32,000 nt of DNA from Blautia obeum ATCC 29174 (GTDB taxonomy: Bacteria > Bacillota > Clostridia > Lachnospirales > Lachnospiraceae): positions 2,020,296-2,052,295 of the forward strand of contig NZ_CP102265.1 of assembly GCF_025147765.1 (NCBI RefSeq), given 5' to 3'. This document shows, piece after piece, positions 1-29,978 of the stretch. The position numbers were made by a program, and so were the translations under genes. The notes beneath the pieces were generated by a model that was not told where the DNA came from, did not search any database, and saw only the letters and a program-made list of their open reading frames with translations. The first letter of the stretch is position 1. Every line of letters starts with the position of its first letter.

Positions 1-180
1 AAACCCTTTTTCTCTTCAATATGCCTATTATAGCAAATCAAAAAGAAAAAGGGTAGTCCTGTTTTATATTCATCAAAGCGGACACATCAGAGAATCAGCA
101 TGGCATCCCGGATATTTATGAATTGTAACCAAAATCCAACATTTGTTGGGTATTTATATAGGAAGTAATTTGATTTTTCC

Positions 181-11789: not shown

Positions 11790-12815
11790 ATGAAAAAGAG
11801 AACATTTTTTACCCCCCCCCCGAAAAAATCTGACAATTTAGTAGTCACTTCTTTTCGTAAGATTCTTTGTTTATCTTCCTGTGCCATAATCGGACTTATT
11901 TCTTTAGGCTGCTCCAATGTCACTGCGCAAGAACAAACGTCTACATCTGAAAAAGCTGCTCAGATTTCTTCTTTTTCGGATTACTCTTGGGGTACTTCCT
12001 ACGATGATATTTATTCAGATCAAATAACCTCAGACATGAAAGAGACTGTTGATTATCAATGTGATGAATCTAATGATATTTCTGCATTAACGCTTCTACA
12101 TCAAGAAGTTGCAGGCTATTCAGATGTTTCTTCCTCCTATCTTTTTTCAGATAATAAGCTCATTGCTGGAAGCTACGATCTTGACATTGATGATACGGCA
12201 TTTGATGATTTATCAAAAAAAATCGCTCAAACATATGAAAAGCCTTATCTTGAAAAGGAATCTACTGGTTGGGGAAAATTATCCATCTGGATTGATGATT
12301 CCAAGGATGTAATAACATTATCAGAAATGCTTGGTATTACTTTTTTTGAGGCAGACAGTCCTTGCCTTGAATTTTTAAATGATCAATTTATCGAATTTCA
12401 TGACGTTGATCTCGTGTCAGAAATAAAAAAATATAATAACTTGGATGGACTTTCAGAATCGGCTTCTGATTCTTCCAACCCCCTACTGAATGCGCAAGTT
12501 GTTACTGCTCCGGTAAAAAGTGGAGATAATTCTAAAACGCTTGGAACCTATGCATATATCAGCATTGCTAAGGACATTTTAAAAACGGTTACTTTAGAAC
12601 AATTCACTGAATTTGCACAAACAGTGGTTGATAACAGTGGTTATAACTGGTTCTCCATCATCTGTGAAGATGGAACTGGTATCTGTTTTTCTGGATCAGA
12701 TATCTACTATCCTTCATACGGAAAATTAGATACAGATGGAGCAATTACAGACGGATATGGTGATATTACATGGGATTTTAATACAAACTCATACACGTAT
12801 ACACCACGACAATAA
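11790..12815 (+). CDS. Secreted lipoprotein, hypothetical (moron-like; only plus-strand gene)
   Basis: 341-aa ORF with AGGAG 8 nt upstream. The signal peptide carries the lipobox ..IIGLISLGC|S. It is oriented opposite to every other gene. Confidence 0.8.
   Translation: MKKRTFFTPPPKKSDNLVVTSFRKILCLSSCAIIGLISLGCSNVTAQEQTSTSEKAAQISSFSDYSWGTSYDDIYSDQITSDMKETVDYQCDESNDISALTLLHQEVAGYSDVSSSYLFSDNKLIAGSYDLDIDDTAFDDLSKKIAQTYEKPYLEKESTGWGKLSIWIDDSKDVITLSEMLGITFFEADSPCLEFLNDQFIEFHDVDLVSEIKKYNNLDGLSESASDSSNPLLNAQVVTAPVKSGDNSKTLGTYAYISIAKDILKTVTLEQFTEFAQTVVDNSGYNWFSIICEDGTGICFSGSDIYYPSYGKLDTDGAITDGYGDITWDFNTNSYTYTPRQ
11812..11821 (+). repeat. C10 homopolymer inside codons 8-11 of the lipoprotein gene
   Basis: The sequence is ttttttaCCCCCCCCCCgaaaaaa. 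The tract is currently in frame (TPPPK). Confidence 0.95.
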
Positions 12816-13132
12816 TTTTTCTTTTTATTGGATTTTCACAAAATTTAAGTCTGGGTTTTATAAATATCTCACGAAAATGAGCCGATTTTCCAACATTTGT
12901 TGGCTTTAATTTGTCAGCCGCTTTTCAGCCTTTGGCTGACTGAGACTTAGGTTTAGAATAAGATTAAGAGAAAAGATAAAGATATATGCTCATTTGCACC
13001 AGCTTTTCCTCCAACAATGTCAGGGACAAATTGGCTTACAAGCGGCTTGACGAGATTTAAGCTTAGTATTTGAGTATATAAATATAGTTATTACATATGC
13101 TCTGTTTGCACCGGGATTATCCCGGGACAAAT

Positions 13133-13163
13133 AAAAAAAATCCCGACACCATCAGGCATCGGG
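13133..13163 (-). terminator. Rho-independent terminator (minus strand)
   Basis: In minus-sense RNA there is a 9-bp stem (two G.U pairs) with a tetraloop, followed by A and U8. On the plus strand the same stem would carry two C-A mismatches and has no U tail. Confidence 0.6.
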
Positions 13164-13173
13164 GAAGGGTAGT

Positions 13174-13193
13174 AAACTCAATATTTTGAAGTT
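13174..13193. promoter_or_regulatory. Weak operator-like site S9: AAACTCA-ATATTT-TGAAGTT
   Basis: The left half is perfect and the right half degenerate. It overlaps the -35 of the candidate antitoxin RNA promoter. Confidence 0.25.
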
Positions 13194-13220
13194 GACATTT
13201 TACTCGCAACAGCATATGAT
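13192..13220 (+). promoter_or_regulatory. Promoter of candidate antitoxin sRNA (TTGACA-17 nt-TATGAT)
   Basis: Near-consensus sigma-70/sigA hexamers with 17-nt spacing in an ORF-free region. It points at the bidirectional terminator ~45 nt away. Confidence 0.6.
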
Positions 13221-13226
13221 AATAAC

Positions 13227-13305
13227 AGCTAAGCAAGCTGATGAAATTGCATTAGGCAAAATGAAAACCCCTGAAAGTGGTCCAGACTTTCAGGGGTTTT
13301 CTATT
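13227..13305 (+). ncRNA. Candidate antisense antitoxin RNA (RNA II-like) of an Fst/par-type type I TA
   Basis: Predicted ~75-nt transcript from the 13192-13220 promoter to the 13264-13300 terminator. It contains two direct repeats of the toxin translation-initiation region: 13231-13245 vs 13413-13427 (14/15) and 13247-13256 vs 13434-13443 (10/10). Convergent transcription makes these repeats complementary at the RNA level. Confidence 0.55.
13264..13300. terminator. Bidirectional rho-independent terminator
   Basis: aaaacccctgaaagt-ggtccag-actttcaggggtttt forms a perfect 15-bp stem with a 7-nt loop. An A-run on one side and a T-run on the other allow it to function on both strands. Confidence 0.8.
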
Positions 13306-13349
13306 CCGTTTATGTAAGGTGGCTTATGCCTTTAGGCTGTCTGCGCTGC

Positions 13350-13439
13350 TTATTCATCTCCATCCAGCCATTTGCAAATGTAGTAGCTAATTACACCTGC
13401 TACGATAGAGACAAGCAAACTGATGAATAAATCTTGCAT
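13350..13439 (-). CDS. Fst-like type I toxin (29-aa hydrophobic peptide)
   Basis: Hand translation gives MQDLFISLLVSIVAGVISYYICKWLDGDE*. GGAAGGAGGTGA lies 6 nt upstream of the ATG. It has a single TM-like helix and an acidic tail, similar in layout to pAD1 Fst (MKDLMSLVIAPIFVGLVLEMISRVLDEEDDSRK, recalled from memory). Confidence 0.65.
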   Translation of the reverse strand: MQDLFISLLVSIVAGVISYYICKWLDGDE

Positions 13440-13446
13440 TAGGTTT

Positions 13447-13468
13447 CACCTCCTTCCTGCCGGAGGTG
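13447..13468 (-). promoter_or_regulatory. SD-sequestering hairpin in the toxin 5' leader
   Basis: In minus-sense RNA, CACCUCC-ggcaggaa-GGAGGUG forms a hairpin whose 3' arm is the toxin Shine-Dalgarno sequence. Confidence 0.55.
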
Positions 13469-13480
13469 CGCAGCAAAATT

Positions 13481-13509
13481 ATGTTATCACATTACACATA
13501 TTTCTACAA
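13481..13509 (-). promoter_or_regulatory. Candidate toxin mRNA promoter (TTGTAG-17 nt-TGaTAACAT)
   Basis: Extended -10 with a partial -35, immediately after the endolysin stop codon. It predicts a ~210-nt mRNA ending at the bidirectional terminator. Confidence 0.4.
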
Positions 13510-13518
13510 TCAGATTTT

Positions 13519-15024
13519 TCATCTGAGCAGAATGCTTTTCCAAGTTGCTGGCCCTGCGCATCCATCTACACTCAGGCCTTTCTTGGTCTGGTATGTCTTG
13601 ATCGCATATACTGTATTGGTTCCGCATTCTCCATCAATGGTCAGGTTCTTTCCGTCCTTCCCTTTGAATCCATTACTTTTCAGTAATCTCTGTAATAGCT
13701 TAACATCGTTTCCTTTGCTTCCGTTCTGAACGTTTCCTACGCTAAACATATATCCGCTGCCTCCTGTCGTTGTTGTGGTGGTATTTGTCGTGCTTCCTTT
13801 TCCTGTATTGGAACCATTATCAACAGTTACGTTTACATGGTGTCCTGTGTTCAGGTTGATATCTCCTCTCTTTGCAAGGCTTGAATCTTTCAGGTACCGT
13901 CCCTGCAGAACTGTAAAATATTTCTTTCCCTTTGCAGAATTGAAATAATCCATCATGTTACCGGTATATGTAGCATTACATTCCTGCAACTCTTTGATGC
14001 CTTTCAGGTGCCCTACCGCCTGAATAAGTACAATTGTTTCCTCGCTACAATCGCATTCGCAAGGCTTTGCGATTTTGGAAGGGCGATACCCTACCGCTTT
14101 CATCTGCTGTCGGAACGTATAACGATCAGTGGAATTTCCTGCTGTTCCCTGGTCGTAACCGATCATATCATTCAGTGCTGCTTCGATGGCCAGATCAGCA
14201 AACAGATTTCCAAGACTTTCATCCTTCCATCGAAGAATATAATTCCATCCACCAGTTGGATATGCATACCAGGAGCGCAGATACCATTCTGTTCCGGTCT
14301 GGTCCCCTGCTTTTCCTCCTGCATATCTCCCGTTTTCGTCATGCCCACAATTTGACATTCTTACTGCCACTGTAGTTCCTCCCTTCTGTTCTGTGCCTCC
14401 ATCAGCATATTTTGTAATAAACTCATACACTTTTTTCTGGCGTGTAGTGTAATCCCCGACCTGATTCGGCTTCGGGTCGGCAGGATCCGTATTCAATGCT
14501 GCATAAATTCCTTTTGCCGTGTATGGTTTTGCTGTTTTTGCCAGAATCCGTTTTAATGCGGATGCACCGCCTTGATGATAGATGTTAATGCACTCCATCA
14601 TAGCTGCATCTGGCATGGCTCCGTACATCTTGCCAAGGCTGACAGCATATTCTTTGATCTGCGTTTCCATCAATTCATCCTGACATTTAATACCAACCGC
14701 CGAGGAAATAATTGCAATGATGCATTTCCCTTTGGCTGATGCGGAAGATACTCCATATCTGTCCCAGCTCTTTTTCAGATCAGCAGCAATACCGGCAGTG
14801 TCAAGTTTGGAAAAATCCTTCGGATATTTCTTCTGGATATTCTGCAATAGCAGTCTCGCTTCGCCTGCATACCACTGACCGGCTCCAATCGTGATTGCTT
14901 TTTCATTTGGAGTATTTGCTCCTACTCCTGCAAATGCAGAATAATTTTGGCGGCCATATACCTGACCGCCACTTTCCACAGCATATAGAATTTTTCTCAA
15001 TACAGTAATGTTTTGCTGTTTCAT
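13519..15024 (-). CDS. Multidomain cell-wall hydrolase (endolysin) with C-terminal PG_binding_1 domain
   Basis: The table start is TTG. ATG at 15024 has GGAGGTGA upstream. The N-terminus looks lysozyme-like (..YAVESGGQVYG..), the central segment is ..SNCGHDENGRYAGGKAGDQTGTEW.., and the C-terminal ..LLQRLLKSNGFKGKDGKNLTIDGECGTNTVYAIKTYQTKKGLSVDGCAGPATW.. is a peptidoglycan-binding repeat. It sits after the holin genes. Confidence 0.8.
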   Translation of the reverse strand: MKQQNITVLRKILYAVESGGQVYGRQNYSAFAGVGANTPNEKAITIGAGQWYAGEARLLLQNIQKKYPKDFSKLDTAGIAADLKKSWDRYGVSSASAKGKCIIAIISSAVGIKCQDELMETQIKEYAVSLGKMYGAMPDAAMMECINIYHQGGASALKRILAKTAKPYTAKGIYAALNTDPADPKPNQVGDYTTRQKKVYEFITKYADGGTEQKGGTTVAVRMSNCGHDENGRYAGGKAGDQTGTEWYLRSWYAYPTGGWNYILRWKDESLGNLFADLAIEAALNDMIGYDQGTAGNSTDRYTFRQQMKAVGYRPSKIAKPCECDCSEETIVLIQAVGHLKGIKELQECNATYTGNMMDYFNSAKGKKYFTVLQGRYLKDSSLAKRGDINLNTGHHVNVTVDNGSNTGKGSTTNTTTTTTGGSGYMFSVGNVQNGSKGNDVKLLQRLLKSNGFKGKDGKNLTIDGECGTNTVYAIKTYQTKKGLSVDGCAGPATWKSILLR

Positions 15025-15176
15025 CTCCAATCACCTCCGGTCTCGTCCAATTCATCCATAAAACCGCAGACATCTTCAAACCATCTTCCGGTTTCTCTTG
15101 CCAGTGCAACCAGAAAGCAAACGCCCCCAAACGCTGCAACGCCTGCAACAGTAATCGCAATACTTTTAATTGTCAT
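15021..15176 (-). CDS. Small single-pass membrane protein (51 aa), lysis-cassette component
   Basis: Hand translation gives MTIKSIAITVAGVAAFGGVCFLVALARETGRWFEDVCGFMDELDETGGDWR*. GGGAGGG lies 9 nt upstream and its stop overlaps the endolysin ATG (ATGA). Below the ORF-track cutoff. Confidence 0.55.
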   Translation of the reverse strand: MTIKSIAITVAGVAAFGGVCFLVALARETGRWFEDVCGFMDELDETGGDWR

Positions 15177-16382: not shown

Positions 16383-16578
16383 TGTTCTCACCTCCTTCCC
16401 ATCCTGACGTTTCTTCTTGCCATTCCACATCGTCTGCATCTGCATACGGGCGGCACATGGCCTCTATGACATCCAGATCATTGTGTATCTGGTCAAGACT
16501 TTTGTTTGATTTTCCGTCAATATAGAACAGGAGGTCATAAACCGCAGACCATAGCTTCGCTATAATTTTCAACTTCAT
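16375..16578 (-). CDS. Hypothetical small protein
   Basis: 67-aa ORF. Its start overlaps the RT 3' end by 44 nt (AGGAG upstream) and its stop overlaps the XhlA-like ATG. Confidence 0.4.
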   Translation of the reverse strand: MKLKIIAKLWSAVYDLLFYIDGKSNKSLDQIHNDLDVIEAMCRPYADADDVEWQEETSGWEGGENNG

Positions 16579-17674
16579 AGGCTATTTCTCCTACAACCTT
16601 GTTTCTATCAAGAACCACTGAATCTATCAGTTCTTTTCGGAACTCTTTGCAATCGCAGTGATCCAGCATGCCCAAATAAGATTTTAATGTGGCAGTTACC
16701 ACTTCCATCTCGATCAGTCCGGCGTTGTATTCCTCTACTTTTCTTCTGAGATGGCGCTTCATCTCCAATGTGGTGCTTTTCCTGATAGTTACATAATGCG
16801 GCCATATCCGATAGCCTACGAACTCTATGCCCTGCGATATCGGGCGTATGCAAGTCTTTTGGTTCAGAGATAACCGTAACGTTGTTTCCACAAACTTCTG
16901 GATTTCATCTTTCCACATGTGAAGCTGCTCTTTGCTGTCCGACAGAATGATAATATCATCCATGTATCTGACATAAAAATGGATGCACAGTGTCCTTTTA
17001 CAGAACTGATCCAGTGCATCCAAGTAAATATTTGCAAATACCTGCGATAGCAGATTTCCTACCGGCATACCTACATCGTAAAGCCTTTCCTCCAAAGGCA
17101 CCTCTCCAGGACCTTTACCAGGCGGTAATCCAAATGGCGTATACTGGCAATCTATAATGTTATACAGGACTTGCAAAAGCTGTTGATCTTTGATTTTCCT
17201 TGCCAGAATCTCCTTCAATACTTCGTGAGATATCCGGTAAAAATATTTGCTGATATCCAGTTTAAGGTAATACCATGTGCCAGGCTTATGTTCTACGGAT
17301 TTTATCCAATATCGCAGTCTTTGCATGGCAGCAAGCGAACCTCTTCCTGGAATACAGCCGTAAGTATCTTTGATATATCCTTTTACCAACAGGGGATTTA
17401 TGACACGATATATCGCCCATTGCACAATGCGGTGATAAAACGTGATTGACATGATCATTCTCTTTTTAGGTTCATAAACATAAAAGATATAATACTTATC
17501 AATCGTGTATTTACCAGAGCGTACATCCTGTTGTATCTGTTCAATGACATTCCAAATATCGTGCTGGACGCGAAGAACATCTTTGTTGTATCTTCTGCCT
17601 TTTGACGCATCTTGGATTGCCTCATACAGATTGTCGTCAGAGAATATCAAGTCAAAAACATGCTTGATTTTCAT
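16535..17674 (-). CDS. DGR reverse transcriptase
   Basis: 379-aa ORF with the YMDD catalytic box (..VRYMDDIIILSD..) and the VGNLLSQ motif, the [LIV]GxxxSQ signature typical of DGR RTs. It is adjacent to the TR and avd. Confidence 0.9.
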   Translation of the reverse strand: MKIKHVFDLIFSDDNLYEAIQDASKGRRYNKDVLRVQHDIWNVIEQIQQDVRSGKYTIDKYYIFYVYEPKKRMIMSITFYHRIVQWAIYRVINPLLVKGYIKDTYGCIPGRGSLAAMQRLRYWIKSVEHKPGTWYYLKLDISKYFYRISHEVLKEILARKIKDQQLLQVLYNIIDCQYTPFGLPPGKGPGEVPLEERLYDVGMPVGNLLSQVFANIYLDALDQFCKRTLCIHFYVRYMDDIIILSDSKEQLHMWKDEIQKFVETTLRLSLNQKTCIRPISQGIEFVGYRIWPHYVTIRKSTTLEMKRHLRRKVEEYNAGLIEMEVVTATLKSYLGMLDHCDCKEFRKELIDSVVLDRNKVVGEIAYEVENYSEAMVCGL

Positions 17675-17883
17675 TGATTTTCCCTCTGTTTTTCATTATT
17701 TCGTTGTGTTTGGCGGTTTTCTCATAGGTACTGGCAGCCTCCACAACCGATGCCACATCTGCAGAACGCCATCAACATAGCACCATTTTTCTCCTGCTTT
17801 TCAGCCGGAGTGGAAACAGGTTCCTTTATCCCCTCGCACTGTCGGTAGTCCTTGGAGTTTCCGATTCTGGCATATGAGGGTAG

Positions 17884-17999
17884 AGCGGAGCGGAAGCCGA
17901 TGTTCGTGTTCGAGTTGGAACGTGGATTGTTCAGGTTCACGTTGAACACACCAGCATTCGAGGTGTTGTTCCAGTTGCCACCACAGATCGGCAAACGCT
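17884..17999 (-). repeat. DGR template repeat (TR)
   Basis: 116 nt homologous to VR1 (112 nt to VR2). Read in the VR frame it encodes ..CGGNWNNTSNAGVFNVNLNNPRSNSNTNIGFRSA with 11 Asn codons (9 AAC, 2 AAT). It is non-coding and lies between avd and the RT. Confidence 0.9.
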
Positions 18000-18023
18000 A
18001 TAACCCATTCCCTACGAAAATAC

Positions 18024-18476
18024 TCAATGTCTTTTATATCGACTGTTTCCATATCTGGAGGATTTCTGCTGCTGAGTAGCCGTATTGTCAGCATCAGAGT
18101 TTGCTCCATTCACCGTATTAATAAAACCACCTATCATTCTGCCTATTTCTTCTGAACGTCTAGTCCATTCTTTGTAGCTGGACAGTCCTTTCAGAATATT
18201 CAGATCATATGCTACTTTGATAAATTCTTGCAGAGTTTTATTCTCTCTGTCAAAATCTCCAAGAGTGGTTTTCTTGTAGTATTTCTCCCTGATATCTACT
18301 GATAATCGAAGCAATTTCTTCATGCAATCCATCAGATCGTTTCCGATGGCGTATTTATCTGCAATGCTCCATTTCTTTATAAGCGGATATGCATAGTCTA
18401 TCATGTCTTCGACCTTCTGAAGAATCTGGAAGGAATCATCTTTTGTGACAGTTCCGGTGTTCTGGCTTTCCTCCAT
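18024..18476 (-). CDS. avd: DGR accessory variability determinant (Avd-like four-helix-bundle protein)
   Basis: 150-aa ORF between the target gene and the TR. ..YAYPLIKKWSIADKYAIGNDLMDCMKKLLRLSV..EIGRMIGGFI.. matches the Avd / 23S-rRNA-IVS-protein family pattern. Confidence 0.8.
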   Translation of the reverse strand: MEESQNTGTVTKDDSFQILQKVEDMIDYAYPLIKKWSIADKYAIGNDLMDCMKKLLRLSVDIREKYYKKTTLGDFDRENKTLQEFIKVAYDLNILKGLSSYKEWTRRSEEIGRMIGGFINTVNGANSDADNTATQQQKSSRYGNSRYKRH

Positions 18477-18500
18477 ACTTTCGCAGCCTCCATTTTTCTA

Positions 18501-18522
18501 CTGCCCTACTACCGTAGGGCAG
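18501..18522 (-). promoter_or_regulatory. GC-rich hairpin 36 nt downstream of VR1 (DGR target-recognition hairpin candidate)
   Basis: ctgcccta-ctaccg-tagggcag forms an 8-bp stem with a 6-nt loop. Its counterpart follows VR2 at 1496-1515. Confidence 0.6.
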
Positions 18523-18543
18523 AACAGTACACAGTTCTCAGTT

Positions 18544-19590
18544 TTACAGTTCACAGTAAGCGGAGCGGAAGCCGATGCTCGCGTCCGAGCTGGAACGCGG
18601 ATTGCCCAGGTACACGCTGAACACACCAGCACTCGAGGTGCTGAGCCAGCGGCCACCACAGATCGGCAAACGCTCGCCAGAGTTATTCATATAATGACCA
18701 TCACCACCGTAATCACCACCCGGTTCATCAGGATAAATTAACAAAGCTTTAGCAATCTCAGGAACCGTTAATGCAGAATCAAGTGTCATATTCTGATATG
18801 TGTCACCTCTCCAAGTGTCTTCTGGCGTAATATCACCAGATGTAAGCTGGATATGTCCGCTCACATAGTTATATTTCAGAGTACCGGCAGTTCCAGGCTC
18901 AACCAGTGTGCCATCTGCTGCAATGGCTTTCCAAAGGGTGGAGCTTGCACCCATGCTTGCATCAGCGGCCATGCAGTTTGCATATGGAATGATCTGGATT
19001 TCCCCATTCATCAGTCGCATACCTGCACACCATTCCCAAACATTACCGTTCAGGTCTGCAATTCCATCAGGCATCCAGTTATGGTTCCATGTATTCGGTC
19101 CGGATCCGGTTGCGCATCTGGCAATTTTCCCACTCTCGTAATAAGTCGGAACGCCTTTTTCATGTCCATATGCGTGATCGGCTCCGTAATTGTTATTGCC
19201 TCTCGGCATGGTTCCGTTTTTACGACACCATAAAGCAATAGCAGACCACAGGGAATAAGGTGTAAGGCTCCATCCTTTCCCTTTATTTCGACAATATGTA
19301 ACTGCCTGATCGAAATTAAGGCTTGCTCTTGGGTCACGCATCGGGAGGGAATATCCACGTTCATTCAGGACAATGTTCTGATATTTTGAAACATAGATAA
19401 CGCTCTTTTCTACTCCGTCCACACTGAATGCCGGGTGAATGTTTTCACTTCCTCCTGCAATCAGGTCAGACATTTTCAGTTTCGGGAATGGAACCATTAC
19501 AGAAGGCATTCCCAGATCATCAAATAATACGGTGTTTTTCCCACCGGACAGTGCTTCAATAGATAACTTTAAATCGTCAAAATTCGGCAT
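18544..19590 (-). CDS. DGR target protein 1 (FGE-sulfatase / C-type-lectin-fold; likely receptor-binding tail-fibre tip)
   Basis: 348-aa ORF, the last gene of the tail-fibre region. It carries ..GWSLTPYSLWSAIALW.. and ..GNVWEWCAG.. motifs. The C-terminal ..LPICGGRWLSTSSAGVFSVYLGNPRSSSDASIGFRSAYCEL is encoded by VR1. Confidence 0.88.
   Translation of the reverse strand: MPNFDDLKLSIEALSGGKNTVLFDDLGMPSVMVPFPKLKMSDLIAGGSENIHPAFSVDGVEKSVIYVSKYQNIVLNERGYSLPMRDPRASLNFDQAVTYCRNKGKGWSLTPYSLWSAIALWCRKNGTMPRGNNNYGADHAYGHEKGVPTYYESGKIARCATGSGPNTWNHNWMPDGIADLNGNVWEWCAGMRLMNGEIQIIPYANCMAADASMGASSTLWKAIAADGTLVEPGTAGTLKYNYVSGHIQLTSGDITPEDTWRGDTYQNMTLDSALTVPEIAKALLIYPDEPGGDYGGDGHYMNNSGERLPICGGRWLSTSSAGVFSVYLGNPRSSSDASIGFRSAYCEL
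18559..18674 (-). repeat. DGR variable repeat VR1
   Basis: 116 nt align without gaps to TR 17884-17999. By my hand count there are 15 mismatches, all at plus-strand T of the TR, which is A on the coding strand. Confidence 0.9.
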
Positions 19591-24622: not shown

Positions 24623-25351
24623 TTACATTTTCTTTAGCCATGTATTATAAGCATATCCCCACTTGCTACCATACTTCACATGATACCAGTTTCCCTTCTT
24701 TTTTCCATCCGAAGTAACCGTTTTGCCATATGGCATTAGTCCCAGTATTGTTGAATTTGGTCCTTTTCTTAAATGCAGGCCACTTTTTGCGGTGACTTTA
24801 TATTTAATAGTTTTTTTATTGCTTGGTCGCTTACCTGTACTTGTCTTTTTGGGCTTTTTGTTTGCTTTTTTCTTGTATGTACTGACAGAGACTTTTCGGT
24901 GTTCTCTTATCTTCACTTTATAATAGACTGTTCCAACATCTCCACCCTGTTCATATGGAACATATGATGCAAGATCAGCATACATATTTATTGCAAACGG
25001 GCCTCCCACCAGTACAAAATGAAATGGGTTCTTTGCATTCGTAAGAGCCAGCATCCACTTGTGCCATACGGAAGGCTTTTTAAACTCTTTCTGCATACAA
25101 GCACAGTAGTTTTTTCCATACTGCGAAGGGAAAATAGATTCAAATTCAATGGTTATAGCATCTCTTTTCCCTCTATGCAGTATTTCTCCAAAAGTATCAA
25201 TATCTACGGAAGTCAGTTTTCCATTAACTGTGAGGGCAATCTTTGCCGGAAGCATCGGAGCAACATATACCTTTTTGTCATTATCATAATTGAAAAACAT
25301 TCGGTATTTTGTTGGATTGTTCACATTTTGCTTGAACATATTAGAACTCAT
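24623..25351 (-). CDS. XkdP-position tail protein with C-terminal SH3b-like domain
   Basis: The first ATG at 25351 (MSSNMFK...) has GGAGGTGA 8 nt upstream and overlaps the TMP end. The C-terminal ..YKVTAKSGLHLRKGPNSTILGLMPYGKTVTSDGKKKGNWYHVKYGSKWGYAYNTWL is SH3b-like. Confidence 0.6.
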   Translation of the reverse strand: MSSNMFKQNVNNPTKYRMFFNYDNDKKVYVAPMLPAKIALTVNGKLTSVDIDTFGEILHRGKRDAITIEFESIFPSQYGKNYCACMQKEFKKPSVWHKWMLALTNAKNPFHFVLVGGPFAINMYADLASYVPYEQGGDVGTVYYKVKIREHRKVSVSTYKKKANKKPKKTSTGKRPSNKKTIKYKVTAKSGLHLRKGPNSTILGLMPYGKTVTSDGKKKGNWYHVKYGSKWGYAYNTWLKKM

Positions 25352-28300
25352 ACGATGCGTCACCTCCTACCAGAGCTTCCTCTGTAACAATATTTACAAA
25401 TACATCTCGCACCTTTTCCATAAGTACCTGCACGATATCATCTTTGGAAACGCCCTTGCCGGCAGTAATGCTACCATTTCCATTGATATTGATATCAATG
25501 GTCCGGTTACTGCTTGCTTTTGTTTCCTGTCCATTTCCGTCAGTATTCTTTCCTCCGGAATACATTGACGGTGCTATCTGAATAGGCCCATCTTCCAATG
25601 CTCCAAGACGTTTTCCTGCTTCCTGCCATAATTCCATAGCATTTCCAGAACCATCCAACGGAATAATTGCCTCTGGTCCTGCTTCTGCAACCATACCAAG
25701 ATGAGGCTCATCGAAAATACCGCCAGCCGCATGAAGAGCAGCTGTTACTGTTGCGGATCCGGTTGCTCCTCCACCAAAGCTAATTGTCTTTGTTGGATTT
25801 GCCAAAGAATAATTCGCTGTCAGTGTTACGTGTACAGTGCCAGATGCAGAATACGGATTCGCCCACGCACTGCGAACAAGTCCTCCTACATAATCATATA
25901 CAGACGCAATGTTGTCGTTACCTTTTGCCAGGGTAACATCTACTGTACCATCGGCAGGAAGGGCTGCTGAAAACGCACTGATCACATCACTCTGTGTAGT
26001 TGCTACAGCTTGAGATGAATCAACATTTCCTGCTGTCAGCGTTATATTCGCTGGGACATTTACAGGAACTGCACTCTGTTCTCCTAGCTTTCCGGTAATC
26101 TCAGATGATAACTGAGTATCATCAATCGCACCAGCTTTAATAGTTACATTCGCTGGAACCTCAACCGGAACAGCTTCACCCTGCTGTAATTTCTCAGAAA
26201 TTGCAGATGCAAGTTCACTATCATCCAGGCTCGCAACCTCAAATTTAATGGTTGTTGGAACATCAGTTTCTTTCGGCTCTGCCTGTGTTTCCTGCTCCTG
26301 TGCAGCCTGCGTTACCTGAGAATCATCTACACCAGCATTTGTCATGTTTGTTTTTACCGGCTGTTCTCTTTCTACGGTCTCTGCTGTTTGGCTCTTTGCT
26401 TCCTCCTCAGCTGCCTGTGCAGTCTGAGAACCGTCTACGCCTTCATCCGTAAGTGTAGTCTTTACTCCCTGCTCAGTTTCTATGGTTTCCCCTGTCTCAC
26501 TTTTTGCCGCTTCCTCAGCTGCTTCTCCCACACCGGAAGCATCTGTATCAACCTTTTCTTTTGGAATCTTTAATTCCATATCAGGATAAATTGTGTATGG
26601 GTCTTCGATACCGTTATACTCAGCTATTTCATGCCAGTCTATTCCAAGGGCTTCTCCGATCTGTGAAAGGCAGTTACCTTTTTCAACTTTGATCTGAATG
26701 TCTCCATCCACTTCGCCCTCTACGGTTCCAAGATCACCAAGGGCATCCTGAATAAGCTGATCTACATGGTCCTGATTTACCTCAACATCATCTACTTCGG
26801 CCTGCATGCCTTCAATAGTTACTGGATCCGGGTCTATATCTGTCGTTGCTCTATCAATGGCGGTTTTTAATTCTTCCGGAACGCTTACGGTTCCATCCTG
26901 AATTGCCTGTACCAACGCTTCACTCGCAGGATCAGCAATCATCTGATTTGCAAACACCTGCCATGCAGCATCGGCATCTCCAGCCGCAGCTCCTACCTGC
27001 ACAGCATCATTAAAGGCAGTCATTACATCCTGCGGAACTGCCTGCCCCATTTCTCTGTACTCATCAATAAGACCTGCCATGCTTTCTACGTCAGGCTTCA
27101 TTGAATCATAAATTTTTGACAATGCTTTCTGGTCTTTGTCACTGAATATGCTCGTACCAGTCATAGCACTGGAAAATCCGCTCTGCATTGAATTGACTAA
27201 GGACATATAATCCTGGTTTGCCAGATATGAATTGGCATTATTCAGGAAATTTCCTGTCTGTTCCTGAATTGCAGAATAATTTGAATCAAGTTTTTCTCCG
27301 TAAGCATCTGAAAGAGTATTTTTTTCAAATTCCAGGCTATTTCCAAGCATACTGGCCTGATCATTCCTTACGGCATATCCTGCCTGCTGCTTATAATTAA
27401 CAAGTTCTTCATCTGAAATTCTCTGCACTCCATTTTCATCAGCTTTGTTCAGAGCATTCAATGTAGTGTACAGCTTCTTTTCTGATGTTTCCAATGCCGC
27501 AGTAGCAGTTTCTCTCTGTTCGCCAAGTTCCTCCACTACCTTTGTAAATGTATCTGCTGTCAGATCTTTTCCTGAAAGTCTGCCATATTTCTGCGTCAGA
27601 ACATCCATCTGAGCTTGTGCTTCCGCTTCCTGCCAGCCTTCCATAATGTTATTGATCTTACCCTGCAACTGGTCAATCGCTGCCTGTTCATCAACATCTA
27701 TGATGCCATCTTCCAATGCAGTCTGAACCAAGTTTGTGAGACCTGCCGACAAAGATTGCATCTCACCCAGATCCTGTTCAGCCCATTTCTCAATCTGAGA
27801 GCCAAGGCTGGAACCATCAGCCATTTTTATGTCGAACTCATTTACCGTCATTTTTGCGGCAAGAGTTTGTTCCGTAAGAGCCTGTTCAATATTCTCTTTG
27901 AATGTCTCTATATTCTGCATATATGAGGACTGTTCATCCTCAGTAAGCTGAATGCCGACACGTGCTTTCCATTCCAGAGCATCGTTTGCAGCAAGGGCTT
28001 CTTCTGCCTGCTGATTAAATTCTTCTGCATTCTCAAAATGACCTATTGCCGCATTGATATTCACAAGCCATTGTGCATCTATTACACGTGATGCGAAATC
28101 CTCAATTTGAGAATCATCCAGCTCTACGCTGCCAAAATGCGCACTTAGGCTGTCTTCTACCTGAATATCATTATATTTCTTTACGGCCAAGCCTACGGCT
28201 GTTATCGCTGCTACAGCCGCCGCTGCTCCTGCTGCCCATGGTGAACCGAATAAACTTGTACCTAATTTTCCTAATGCACTCGCCATTCCACCGGCTTCTG

Positions 28301-29978
28301 AAACCATTCCTGCAATTTTTATACCAGTGTTTACAGTTTTCATTGCCGCAAACCCAGCACCGATAGATGCAAACGCACTTGCGACAGCTTTTGGATTCTG
28401 CAATACAGTCTTGATCATCGGAGACAGTGCATTTCCTACTTTGGAGATTCCACTCGCCAAGGTTCCAAATGCATCAGGAACCCAGGATGTAAGTGTTGGA
28501 ATAATATCACTGGTAATCCACTGCGCACCTTCTCGCAACGGTCCTTCCATTGCTTCAAATGCCTGTAACTGCATTTCTTCATAGGCGCTATTCATATTTG
28601 CCATATCACCAGAAAGATTGTCATTCATCGTTTCTGCCATATCTTCTGATGCTCCGGTGGCGCTTCTCAGAGCTTCCTCATATCCAGCAACCTTGTCCAT
28701 TCCTTCGGCTAGAACCATATTTACGCCCTTAATGGAATCATCGGTAAATACAGAGCTTAATGCAGCGGCTCTCTGAGCACTTCCCATTCCTTCTGTAGCT
28801 TCTCCTACTTCCATTAAGATATCTGTCATATCTCGGAAGTTTCCAGAAGCGTCTTGGACAGCAATAGACGTTTCGCCAATCTTAATTGCTCCATCGTCCA
28901 TTTTGGCTGTAATGTCTCGCATCATAGCTCCCAATGTCGTACCAGCTTCAGAACCCTTTCGACCTTGATTTGCCATAGCCTCCAACAGAGATGTGGTTGT
29001 CTCAACGTCTTGCCCTGCGGCGTGCATATTCGCAGCTGAGTTTTTATATGCTTCTCCCAACTGTGCCGCTGTGGTATTACTGTTAGACTGAGCGTACGCC
29101 AACATATCAGCAAAATATGTAGATTTATTTGCCTCCATGCCAAATGCAGACAAATAATCTGTAACCATGTCTGATGCTTCACCTAATCCCATGCTAGATG
29201 CCGCGGCAAGGTTCAGGACGCCGCCCAAAGCATCCGTAGACTGCTGTGCATCCCATCCTGCCAAACTCATATATTTCAATGCTTCGGCTGCCTCTGATGC
29301 ACTGAAAACTGTGGTTGCACCATATTGTCTTGCAGTATCTTCCATCATCGCAAGATCACTGGATGATGCGCCTGAAATAGCAGCTACTTCTGACATTACA
29401 GATGTATAATTTTTTCCAAGTTCTATGGAATCTGCCGTAAAATCTTTTACCTGTCCAATAATCGCTGCTGCTGAAACAACAGCAAACAATGTTTTTAAAG
29501 CTCCACTGAGATTTATAGCTTTCGATGATGCTTCCTCCATAGAACTCCCTGCATCATCAACCTGCCCTGCAAGCGAATCCATACCATCGGCACCATCTCC
29601 CAGATCACCAGTGGCATCAGCAAGATCATCTACGCTTTCAGAAGCCCTGGATGCACTGTCAGATAAATCATCTGCATTGTCTGCCGCTTCGGAAAAAGCA
29701 GAGCCCATCCCTCTGGTATCTCCTGCTGAAAAACTTTCAAGACCGCTTACAGCATCATCAATGGCATTTCCAAGTGCCTCCGCATCACTTTCAACTGAAT
29801 TGAAGGCACTTCCTGCCTGACTTGCAAATGAAGTGGCGGCACTGGAACGAAAAGCACTGTCCATAGCTCTACCGGCATTACTGAACTGCGTAGCTGCTGT
29901 TCTTGCAGAAGCAGTTATCCTTTGCATTTTCGCACTTACATCATCCTGCAACGTCATTCTTACAGACACATCGCTCAT
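25341..29978 (-). CDS. Tail tape measure protein (with internal LysM-like domain and tandem repeats)
   Basis: 1545-aa ORF after the chaperone pair, Ala/Gly-rich and helical. The LysM-like segment is ..GNCLSQIGEALGIDWHEIAEYNGIEDPYTIYPDMELKIP.. (~26565-26700). Confidence 0.85.
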   Translation of the reverse strand: MSDVSVRMTLQDDVSAKMQRITASARTAATQFSNAGRAMDSAFRSSAATSFASQAGSAFNSVESDAEALGNAIDDAVSGLESFSAGDTRGMGSAFSEAADNADDLSDSASRASESVDDLADATGDLGDGADGMDSLAGQVDDAGSSMEEASSKAINLSGALKTLFAVVSAAAIIGQVKDFTADSIELGKNYTSVMSEVAAISGASSSDLAMMEDTARQYGATTVFSASEAAEALKYMSLAGWDAQQSTDALGGVLNLAAASSMGLGEASDMVTDYLSAFGMEANKSTYFADMLAYAQSNSNTTAAQLGEAYKNSAANMHAAGQDVETTTSLLEAMANQGRKGSEAGTTLGAMMRDITAKMDDGAIKIGETSIAVQDASGNFRDMTDILMEVGEATEGMGSAQRAAALSSVFTDDSIKGVNMVLAEGMDKVAGYEEALRSATGASEDMAETMNDNLSGDMANMNSAYEEMQLQAFEAMEGPLREGAQWITSDIIPTLTSWVPDAFGTLASGISKVGNALSPMIKTVLQNPKAVASAFASIGAGFAAMKTVNTGIKIAGMVSEAGGMASALGKLGTSLFGSPWAAGAAAAVAAITAVGLAVKKYNDIQVEDSLSAHFGSVELDDSQIEDFASRVIDAQWLVNINAAIGHFENAEEFNQQAEEALAANDALEWKARVGIQLTEDEQSSYMQNIETFKENIEQALTEQTLAAKMTVNEFDIKMADGSSLGSQIEKWAEQDLGEMQSLSAGLTNLVQTALEDGIIDVDEQAAIDQLQGKINNIMEGWQEAEAQAQMDVLTQKYGRLSGKDLTADTFTKVVEELGEQRETATAALETSEKKLYTTLNALNKADENGVQRISDEELVNYKQQAGYAVRNDQASMLGNSLEFEKNTLSDAYGEKLDSNYSAIQEQTGNFLNNANSYLANQDYMSLVNSMQSGFSSAMTGTSIFSDKDQKALSKIYDSMKPDVESMAGLIDEYREMGQAVPQDVMTAFNDAVQVGAAAGDADAAWQVFANQMIADPASEALVQAIQDGTVSVPEELKTAIDRATTDIDPDPVTIEGMQAEVDDVEVNQDHVDQLIQDALGDLGTVEGEVDGDIQIKVEKGNCLSQIGEALGIDWHEIAEYNGIEDPYTIYPDMELKIPKEKVDTDASGVGEAAEEAAKSETGETIETEQGVKTTLTDEGVDGSQTAQAAEEEAKSQTAETVEREQPVKTNMTNAGVDDSQVTQAAQEQETQAEPKETDVPTTIKFEVASLDDSELASAISEKLQQGEAVPVEVPANVTIKAGAIDDTQLSSEITGKLGEQSAVPVNVPANITLTAGNVDSSQAVATTQSDVISAFSAALPADGTVDVTLAKGNDNIASVYDYVGGLVRSAWANPYSASGTVHVTLTANYSLANPTKTISFGGGATGSATVTAALHAAGGIFDEPHLGMVAEAGPEAIIPLDGSGNAMELWQEAGKRLGALEDGPIQIAPSMYSGGKNTDGNGQETKASSNRTIDININGNGSITAGKGVSKDDIVQVLMEKVRDVFVNIVTEEALVGGDASYEF

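Follow-up and report, generated by a model that had tools for sequence, protein, structure and literature searches.

The DNA analysed here, a 32,000-nt stretch of Blautia obeum ATCC 29174 (contig NZ_CP102265.1, positions 2,020,296 to 2,052,295 of the forward strand; hereafter the window), encodes a phage, and a small cassette at the end of the lysis operon of this temperate gut phage is very probably a self-contained type I toxin–antitoxin system of the par kind (Fst with RNA I and RNA II), carried as an accessory module. The cassette is predicted to comprise a minus-strand mRNA for a short membrane peptide, MQDLFISLLVSIVAGVISYYICKWLDGDE, and a convergent small RNA that would pair with the toxin initiation region. 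A preliminary description of this stretch had proposed a par-like type I toxin–antitoxin system, and that reading is supported by an architecture shared with L143, a pAD1-type comparison locus whose open reading frame (ORF) is annotated as an Fst family toxin, by co-variation across related loci, and by homology to the RNA family SpF66.

The individual parts named in that description are present (Table 1). The 29-codon ORF has its strong Shine–Dalgarno (SD) sequence, GGAAGGAGGTGA, the 7-bp leader hairpin covers this SD, the convergent promoter agrees with the consensus at 11 of 12 positions, and the shared bidirectional terminator has 16 pairs and U-tracts on both strands. The two direct repeats, described as matching at 10/10 and 14/15 positions and as complementary at the RNA level, were likewise found. 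The first of them, UUGCAUUAGG, is complementary to the segment of the toxin mRNA that covers the AUG (13443-13434), and the second (13231-13245 against 13413-13427) has a sole mismatch, which becomes a G·U pair between the two RNAs. Together, the 36-nt 5′ part of the small RNA and the toxin initiation region give a duplex energy of -34.8 kcal/mol, a value reached by none of 2000 dinucleotide shuffles (mean -17.8 kcal/mol) and, among 5266 other 36-mers of the window, by just 2. The small RNA itself has a fold energy of -31.8 kcal/mol (z = -5.0) with its 5′ part mostly unpaired in the centroid structure, and the terminator provides an additional stretch of complementarity between small RNA and toxin mRNA. 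Terminator-like sites are more frequent in the region than expected by chance (6 found against 0.9 expected).

Relatives of the cassette were found with a degenerate back-translated DNA pattern (CKWLDG[DEKN]E followed by a stop) and with tblastn. The pattern search returned 21 loci in the viral collection and at least 120 in species-representative genomes; among the matches listed, the hosts were nearly all Lachnospiraceae or other Clostridia from guts, with one 6.8-kb Ihubacter plasmid and Streptococcus mitis in addition. Relatives with the full layout were recovered by tblastn on plasmids of 2.4-37 kb from S. pluranimalium, Aerococcus, Waltera, M. gnavus and L. salivarius (genera Ligilactobacillus, Streptococcus, Aerococcus, Waltera and Mediterraneibacter), and blastn of the cassette against the phage collection yielded one record, which is unannotated. 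By these comparisons the window cassette belongs to a large and coherent Fst/par-like subfamily that ranges over Clostridia chromosomes, including those of Lachnospiraceae, gut phages, small plasmids and Lactobacillales.

The layout of the cassette is retained across this range. In 98 related modules (79 distinct) a hairpin, with a stem mostly of 13-16 bp, qualified as a terminator, the criterion being a stem of 7 or more pairs, 4 or more of them G-C, and no U-tract being required. A convergent promoter with at least 9 of 12 consensus matches accompanies it in 74 of the 79 distinct loci, and the distance from the antitoxin -10 element to the terminator stem is 37-54 nt in most of them, from which small RNAs of ~75-90 nt are predicted. 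In diverged loci, the stretch past the terminator repeats each locus's own start-codon region and codons 4-9. The preliminary description had named the failure of repeats and terminator to be conserved together in homologous loci as grounds for abandoning its reading; they are conserved together in 55 diverged loci.

Those 55 loci, all less than 85% identical to each other, were used for a specificity test in which every one of the 55 x 55 mRNA/small-RNA pairs was evaluated. The mean duplex energy was -36.8 kcal/mol for cognate pairs as opposed to -17.2 kcal/mol for non-cognate pairs, and the own partner was the best of 55 for 52 of the toxin mRNAs and for 54 of the small RNAs. The cognate duplex is bipartite, covering -9 to +5 and +8 to +22: the first segment is paired in 40-55 of the 55 loci, with the start codon itself paired in 53-55, and the second in most cognate pairs. 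Where the two repeat copies of a locus differ by a transition, the difference is compatible with G·U pairing in 72 cases and produces A·C in 4, an asymmetry that points to selection on RNA–RNA pairing and not on the identity of the DNA repeats. Sequence comparison across the ~130 related loci shows that the features of the cassette are selected, not accidental. The opposing explanation, that repeats, promoter and hairpins are coincidental or derived from a duplication and that the ORF is unexpressed, can draw on the frequency of single promoter-like matches in the region, which is that of shuffled sequence (3 found, 3.2 expected). It is effectively refuted by the comparative data and keeps almost no probability, given a pairing energy outside the range of the shuffles, features that are conserved and co-vary in the 55 diverged loci, the wobble asymmetry, and a codon-position pattern that is that of coding sequence.

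That pattern is seen in the pairwise identity of the relatives at codon positions 1, 2 and 3 (0.63, 0.89 and 0.49, outside the part fixed by the search pattern), which is the signature of a translated hydrophobic peptide. The window peptide forms a single hydrophobic helix (hydropathy of +2.3 over residues 4-22; net charge -3) with an SxxxG motif (S11-IVA-G15) inside it, a tryptophan (W24) at its end and the acidic tail LDGDE. The relatives encode peptides of 27-32 aa, whose consensus is xxxxSFIxSVxASVVAYYICKWLDG[DE]E (SFIxSVxASVVAYYICKWLDGDE in the family alignment A1), in which YYICKWLD is the core motif. Their helix motif is mostly SxxxS or SxxxG, with DxxxG in S. mitis and PVAVN in L147, a locus from a related phage. 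As the tryptophan is fixed by the search pattern in the 133 loci that it retrieved, its conservation there is not independent; the relatives found independently of the pattern, namely the tblastn plasmid loci and the endolysin-linked loci, also have KWLD and a charged tail. The start codon is GUG or UUG in 21 of the 55 diverged loci.

The 5′ end of the toxin mRNA is predicted from its promoter. In the window, the extended -10 element TGaTAACAT lies at 13489-13481, and 48 of 55 homologous loci have TGnTAnnnT at the corresponding position; taking this TG-extended -10 as the toxin promoter places the 5′ end of the mRNA near 13474 and gives it a length of ~220 nt. The sizes of ~210 and ~75 nt given in the preliminary description are revised to predicted lengths of ~220 and ~80 nt. 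The predicted mRNA is strongly folded (-77.7 kcal/mol, z = -5.5), and both arms of the SD hairpin are paired in the minimum-free-energy (MFE) as well as the centroid fold. SD and anti-SD change together across loci: GGGGG is combined with CCCC in 30 loci and GGAGG with CUCC in 10, as against the mismatched combination GGAGG with CCCC in only 1, and the pair at alignment columns 17/44 of this helix is CG in 37 loci and UA in 4.

The 5′ end of the mRNA has a partner beyond the ORF, in a helix whose 3′ arm starts 4 nt past the stop codon and which corresponds to the 'upstream helix' of par. In the 55 loci the homologous 5′-end/post-stop helix is 88.6% paired, with compensatory changes in 6 of 7 pairs. 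There is also a local alternative, in which CUGC at the 5′ end pairs with GCAG at 13460-13457, between anti-SD and SD; for this pairing the figures are 80.5% paired and compensation in 3 of 6 pairs. The two pairings may be alternatives to each other, or the local one may be a pseudoknot that involves the SD helix. Within the ORF, helices are 95-99% paired across loci, and one of their pairs, which joins position 1 of a Val/Ile codon to the wobble position of an Asp codon, is GC in 26 loci, AU in 15 and GU in 13. Overall, 94% of cells in the named helices of the 55-sequence alignment are paired, compared with at most 57% when the partners are slid, and 85 cells are doubly changed as against 25.5 in shuffles, none of 500 of which reached 85. 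RNAalifold applied to the whole-mRNA alignment recovers the ORF helices only. In the MAFFT alignment the 5′ leader and the terminator are out of register between two classes of leader, and for this reason the helices were named by eye and then counted, with window-type leaders entering the counts as 'not paired'.

From these features we propose a model for the working of the cassette. The ~220-nt minus-strand mRNA would encode a 29-residue single-helix membrane peptide and would be stable but poorly translated, since its 5′ end would be paired past the stop codon, its SD paired and its ORF folded. The stronger, convergent promoter would produce the ~80-nt small RNA, and both RNAs would end at the bidirectional terminator. 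Pairing of the two RNAs may begin at the shared terminator, or take place there as well, and then follow across the start codon, with the 30 unpaired nt at the 5′ end of the small RNA pairing at -4 to +6 and at codons 5-9 and so blocking ribosome loading. By analogy with par, the small RNA would be the less stable partner. On loss of the element, whether prophage, plasmid or island, it would no longer be replenished, the peptide would be translated, and membrane-mediated inhibition or killing of the cell would follow; any stop in small-RNA synthesis would likewise permit translation of the toxin. In this model we infer the relative stabilities of the RNAs, the toxicity of the peptide and its biological role. 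As to that role, maintenance of the element has, in our judgement, a slightly better than even chance of being correct; relatives occur on plasmids of 2.4-37 kb, and it is in such a setting that par works as a post-segregational killer. A role in exclusion or in defence against other phages is possible if on the unlikely side, and some other role or none at all is a little less likely still.

It could also be proposed that the peptide is a non-toxic membrane protein under antisense control, for example a 'moron' concerned with superinfection exclusion or host modulation, and that neither killing nor addiction is involved. The proline of the PxxxG motif is missing from the window peptide, the Fst models failed to recognise it and many copies of the cassette stand in apparently core chromosomal contexts, all of which would suit such a protein. 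Nevertheless, we consider it improbable. The several layers of repression, comprising a hidden SD, GUG or UUG starts and a small RNA over the start codon, are typical for harmful products; decayed loci drop the 5′ part of the toxin gene and keep the small RNA, which is how a toxin gene would be expected to decay; the cassette is enriched on very small plasmids; and the probable pneumococcal relative is toxic if over-produced.

The position of the cassette in the phage raises the separate question of a part in lysis. The toxin -35 element begins 10 nt past the endolysin stop codon and the toxin ORF starts 80 nt past it; there is no terminator in between, so late transcription must read into the cassette. 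The peptide might then be a lysis helper (a small holin, an antiholin or a depolarising peptide) made from late read-through, with the convergent RNA merely timing its translation and without addiction. An XhlA-like protein and small proteins of no assigned function are encoded upstream, and the window peptide weakly matches Pfam Phage_holin_3_3 at E = 0.0045, as do 10 of 38 relatives, and the PHROG holin phrog_785 at E = 0.18. However, the Pfam match scores 17.5 bits against a cut-off of 28.4 and covers the hydrophobic helix only, the cassette has a promoter and terminator of its own, and it also occurs beside housekeeping, integrase and replication genes and on 2.4-9 kb plasmids without lysis genes. 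A phage with a 77% identical endolysin is without the cassette, and the closest characterised relative is a chromosomal pneumococcal toxin–antitoxin. We therefore regard a lysis helper as very improbable, and holin identity was rejected, the matches being below family thresholds and the neighbours heterogeneous across relatives.

The genes next to related modules were compared on 62 upstream and 70 downstream sides, and include LeuA, epimerases, transporters, flagellin, integrases, HTH regulators, terminase and portal. This heterogeneity, together with the related phage in which the cassette is missing, led us to reject a functional link to the endolysin or lipoprotein gene. In a further related phage (L147, endolysin 70% identical) the endolysin gene is followed by a terminator and then by an allelic cassette that encodes the peptide MDNIVALILVPVAVNVISYCIYKWLDRKDK; this cassette has a matching repeat of its own, and the flank downstream of it is that seen in the window. 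On this evidence of its own promoter and terminator and of heterogeneous neighbours, the cassette is autonomous despite late read-through. Folding switches during transcription are known for the hok and aapA1 mRNAs, and the dual partners of the 5′ end might form such a switch here. As no terminator stands behind the endolysin, late read-through transcripts would have no free 5′ end and could fold differently; the peptide might then act in lysis or against superinfecting phages, besides addiction. This extension of the toxin–antitoxin model is unlikely.

Table 1. Features of the cassette and of its surroundings (positions are those of the window unless marked otherwise)
Feature	Position	Strand	Details
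Convergent antitoxin promoter	13192-13220	plus	TTGACA-17-TATGAT; 11/12 consensus matches
Predicted antitoxin small RNA (RNA II equivalent)	13227-13308	plus	~80 nt; 36-nt 5′ targeting region and terminator hairpin; predicted ends
Interaction block 2	13230-13245	plus	complementary to toxin codons 5-9, 13427-13412
Interaction block 1	13247-13256	plus	UUGCAUUAGG; complementary to mRNA over the AUG; repeat 10/10
Shared bidirectional intrinsic terminator	13263-13301	both	16-bp stem, 7-nt loop; U-tracts on both strands
Predicted toxin mRNA (RNA I equivalent)	13255-13474	minus	~220 nt; predicted ends
Long-range helix, 3′ arm	13341-13346	minus	GCGCAG
Toxin ORF	13350-13439	minus	29 aa, MQDLFISLLVSIVAGVISYYICKWLDGDE; ORF translation
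SD	13457-13446	minus	GGAAGGAGGTGA; 7 nt from GGAGGUG to AUG
SD-sequestering hairpin	13447-13468	minus	7 bp; CACCUCC (13468-13462), 8-nt loop, GGAGGUG (13453-13447)
Long-range helix, 5′ arm	13468-13473	minus	CUGCGC; pairs with 13346-13341 in MFE and centroid folds
5′-end strand and its two partners	alignment A2, columns 8-14, 30-35, 149-157		
Toxin promoter	13481-13509	minus	TTGTAG (13509-13504), 17-nt spacer ending TGa, -10 TAACAT (13486-13481); by homology
Overlapping alternative toxin promoter	13506-13478	minus	TAGAAA-17-CATAAT; 9/12 consensus matches
Second terminator, just outside the cassette	13142-13163	minus	terminator scan
Palindrome, just outside the cassette	13105-13131		beside the second terminator
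341-aa ORF, convergent	11790-12815	plus	'lipoprotein gene' of the preliminary description; hydrophobic N-terminus ending LGCS, lipobox-like
Endolysin	13519-15030	minus	ELLD + PG_binding_1
1545-aa ORF, probably a tail gene	25341-29978	minus	from the ORF list, no domain scan

Among the genes that mark the window as phage DNA are those for the endolysin, the XhlA-like protein, a reverse transcriptase and a primase. The convergent 341-aa ORF on the other side of the cassette had no match in Pfam or PHROG. Between that ORF and the cassette stand the second terminator and the palindrome, and the flank that holds this terminator is also present behind the allelic cassette of L147. This terminator is probably a fail-safe terminator or the original one of the lysis operon, and, with the palindrome, may mark where the operon ended before the cassette was inserted. 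The phage of the window carries a diversity-generating retroelement at 16535-19590 on the minus strand, with a reverse transcriptase at 16535-17674 (RVT_1, phrog_1423) and a 116-nt repeat pair that is 87% identical (TR 17884-17999, VR 18559-18674). All 15 mismatches between TR and VR fall at adenines of the 17884-17999 copy, read on the coding strand, and VR is located at the 3′ end of an ORF at 18544-19590 on the minus strand.

The collected loci also record how the cassette varies. In decayed copies (L024, L085, L035, L136, L055, L060 and L116) the 5′ part or the start of the toxin gene is gone and the terminator kept, and the small-RNA promoter and repeat are often retained, making these copies 'orphan antitoxins'. 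Tandem duplication is seen in L058, L083 and L091, each of which has two toxin ORFs 0.4-1.9 kb apart, and L015 has a second terminator plus a small-RNA-like copy. Tandem duplication is also known for the pneumococcal fst-A/B locus (Fozo et al. 2010, PMC2887945). The terminator loops of the 55 loci (alignment A2) often hold UGC/GCA, for example in CUGCAA, UUGCGAC, CGGCAA and CUGCCA, which may constitute a kissing-loop motif specific to the clade.

Several results weigh against the proposed reading, in particular against its Fst component. The preliminary description had remarked on a resemblance to Fst and had suggested a profile search against Fst/Ldr models: the resemblance stands as far as length, helix, tryptophan, SxxxG and acidic tail are concerned, whereas the cut-offs of the curated models were reached neither by the window peptide nor by any of 38 relatives. 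With NCBIfam NF033608 (cut-off 26 bits) the window peptide scored 10.8 bits, the best clade member 18.9 and the Fst control 34.7, and 5 of the 38 relatives matched at E <= 1, none of them at the cut-off. Pfam Fst_toxin PF13955 gave no match to the window peptide and matched 2 of the 38 relatives at E <= 1, again none at the cut-off. The alignment to Fst-pAD1 by hhalign was not significant (probability 2.9%); its register places G15 on G15 and W24 on the valine that replaces the family tryptophan in Fst-pAD1. A profile search of the PDB returned nothing relevant, the Fst and PepA1 structures being missing from its matches too. The proline of PxxxG, which is essential for Fst toxicity (PMC7472228), is a serine in the window, and in most relatives the glycine is a serine as well. 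The link between SpF66 and Fst-B is indirect, being drawn from synteny, motif and length and not from a published sequence.

On the side of the RNAs, a YUNR U-turn is not enriched in the terminator loops of the clade (9 of 55, with 6.1 expected). The window loop, CUGGACC, does contain the YUNR match CUGG, and the U-turn is not present in all par homologues (PMC7472228); a conserved U-turn that nucleates RNA pairing found no support in the clade. A subgroup of five loci (L030, L050, L062, L077 and L105) has an intact toxin gene and lacks the repeat of the initiation region past the terminator. Its peptide, ..[TA]FLISVLASV[AV]GYYICKWLDGDE, is encoded in a setting that keeps promoter, SD hairpin, ORF and terminator, and only AT-rich sequence lies past the terminator. 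The antitoxin of this subgroup may be of a different kind, may be located elsewhere or may have been lost, and the mechanism is consequently not universal in the family. As for the peptide, the scores with the curated models indicate a divergent subfamily, not canonical Fst, that current annotation pipelines overlook.

The preliminary description had called the locus unannotated. In the plasmid records no annotated feature lies under the cassette matches, but the ORF is not entirely without annotation in public data, as the window peptide is already in GenBank in exactly this form as DAJ29349.1, 'MAG TPA: toxin [Caudoviricetes sp.]'. The exact peptide is present on at least 1000 assembled contigs, and the element is therefore common. 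As a whole the subfamily is almost never annotated: the NCBI Fst model misses its members, and Rfam holds the streptococcal toxin mRNA as a plain sRNA.

Our understanding of type I systems is not changed by these findings. The par/Fst kind has already been thoroughly studied, and what is added is a phage-borne example in a poorly annotated subfamily. The 5′-end/post-stop pairing had been missed in the preliminary description. For gut prophages and cryptic plasmids, the cassette is a candidate module of maintenance or exclusion. At least 50 diverged, mutually specific mRNA/small-RNA pairs are predicted, and these would offer both a set of orthogonal RNA regulators and a data set for the evolution of RNA–RNA specificity. 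Type I systems are already used as counter-selection markers in C. difficile, and the cassette might serve as such a marker for Lachnospiraceae genetics.

A comparison with known systems begins with par of pAD1. Par-like loci are defined by convergent promoters, a bidirectional terminator, the direct repeats DRa/DRb, and an SD and a 5′ end that are both paired intramolecularly (Weaver 2020, PMC7472228), and the sequence of the window cassette has convergent promoters, a shared terminator, direct repeats, an SD stem-loop and a sequestered 5′ end. Its order is that of L143, running from toxin promoter through anti-SD/SD hairpin, ORF, 5′-end/post-stop helix, terminator and repeat to the convergent promoter. 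The L143 RNA II is identified by Rfam as RefA9. In both systems the 5′ parts of the two RNAs are complementary over the toxin initiation region owing to two blocks of direct repeats, and L143 has its own 5′-end/post-stop pairing, of GCAGCU with AGCUGC. The encoded peptide is in each case ~30 aa long, with a single transmembrane helix and an acidic tail. Fst/Ldr peptides are defined by a tryptophan between helix and charged tail and by a P/D/S/TxxxG motif (PMC7472228); the window peptide, with 29 aa and one predicted transmembrane helix, has both the tryptophan before its charged tail and the motif, in the form SxxxG, a serine form that has been given for one S. aureus clade only (PMC7472228). 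The differences are that Fst has PxxxG and Fst-pAD1 a valine in place of the conserved tryptophan, that the window family has the YYICKWLD core, and that the window clade has an extra local partner for the 5′ end, whereas the pairing in L143 is distal only. The window clade also shows no enrichment of the U-turn, and the carrier is a phage of gut Clostridia in place of a pheromone plasmid. The function of chromosomal Fst homologues is obscure (PMC7472228).

SprA1/SprA1AS of S. aureus resembles the window cassette in having an Fst-family peptide (PepA1) on a mobile island, and in an antisense RNA that overlaps the mRNA's 3′ end yet represses by pairing at the initiation region. Set against the window by description, PepA1 differs in its PxxxGC motif and basic tail and in lysing cells from outside. 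The prophage-borne type I systems of C. difficile (NF047374) share with the window a Clostridia host and a phage carrier. The C. difficile systems reportedly help to maintain their element (Peltier et al. 2020). The NF047374 model (CD_typeI_toxin) gave a weak match at the level of the helix in 29 of 38 family members (best score 24.6 bits); membership of this toxin family was rejected, as all scores are far below the 60-bit cut-off and only the first half of the ~50-residue model aligns.

The nearest relative at both the peptide and the RNA level, as judged from sequence, is SpF66 together with pneumococcal fst-A/B. Rfam SpF66 (RF02442) matches 13251-13470 of the minus strand over the full model with 36.6 bits (E = 6e-7), which indicates homology yet falls below the curators' gathering score of 42 bits; the sister viral locus L003 reaches 46.6 bits and S. 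mitis 268.7. The S. mitis SpF66 RNA (L137, 5114-5351) encodes MSLIPELALTIIADVIAGIILYFVCKWLDGKE, a DxxxG peptide of 32 codons, and adjoins adcA. The pneumococcal fst-A/B locus lies between fcsR and adcA (Fozo et al. 2010, PMC2887945), and a DxxxG clade from S. pneumoniae is recognised in the Weaver review (PMC7472228). By synteny, motif and length, SpF66 is most likely the pneumococcal fst-A/B toxin mRNA. Rfam differs in classing it as a plain sRNA instead of a toxin mRNA; given the conserved 32-codon ORF with SD and the par-type layout, the family appears to be mis-typed. The Rfam model includes a proposed long-range pairing of the 3′ part of the SD with the 3′ UTR. A literature search on 'SpF66' gave malaria-vaccine papers only, and the CKWLDG motif is printed in no paper of the literature searched.

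Compared with the window, fst-A/B has DxxxG and not SxxxG, a longer N-terminus (32 aa), and a fixed chromosomal site beside adcA in Streptococcus as opposed to a phage. The two share the peptide end ...CKWLDG[KD]E and, in the same arrangement, a convergent small RNA, a terminator and a repeat. Fst-B is toxic in E. coli, and an antisense RNA of 65-75 nt has been detected (PMC2887945). Fst-like matches were reported from C. bolteae and C. asparagiforme by Fozo et al., so that Fst-like peptides in Lachnospiraceae are not unheard of.

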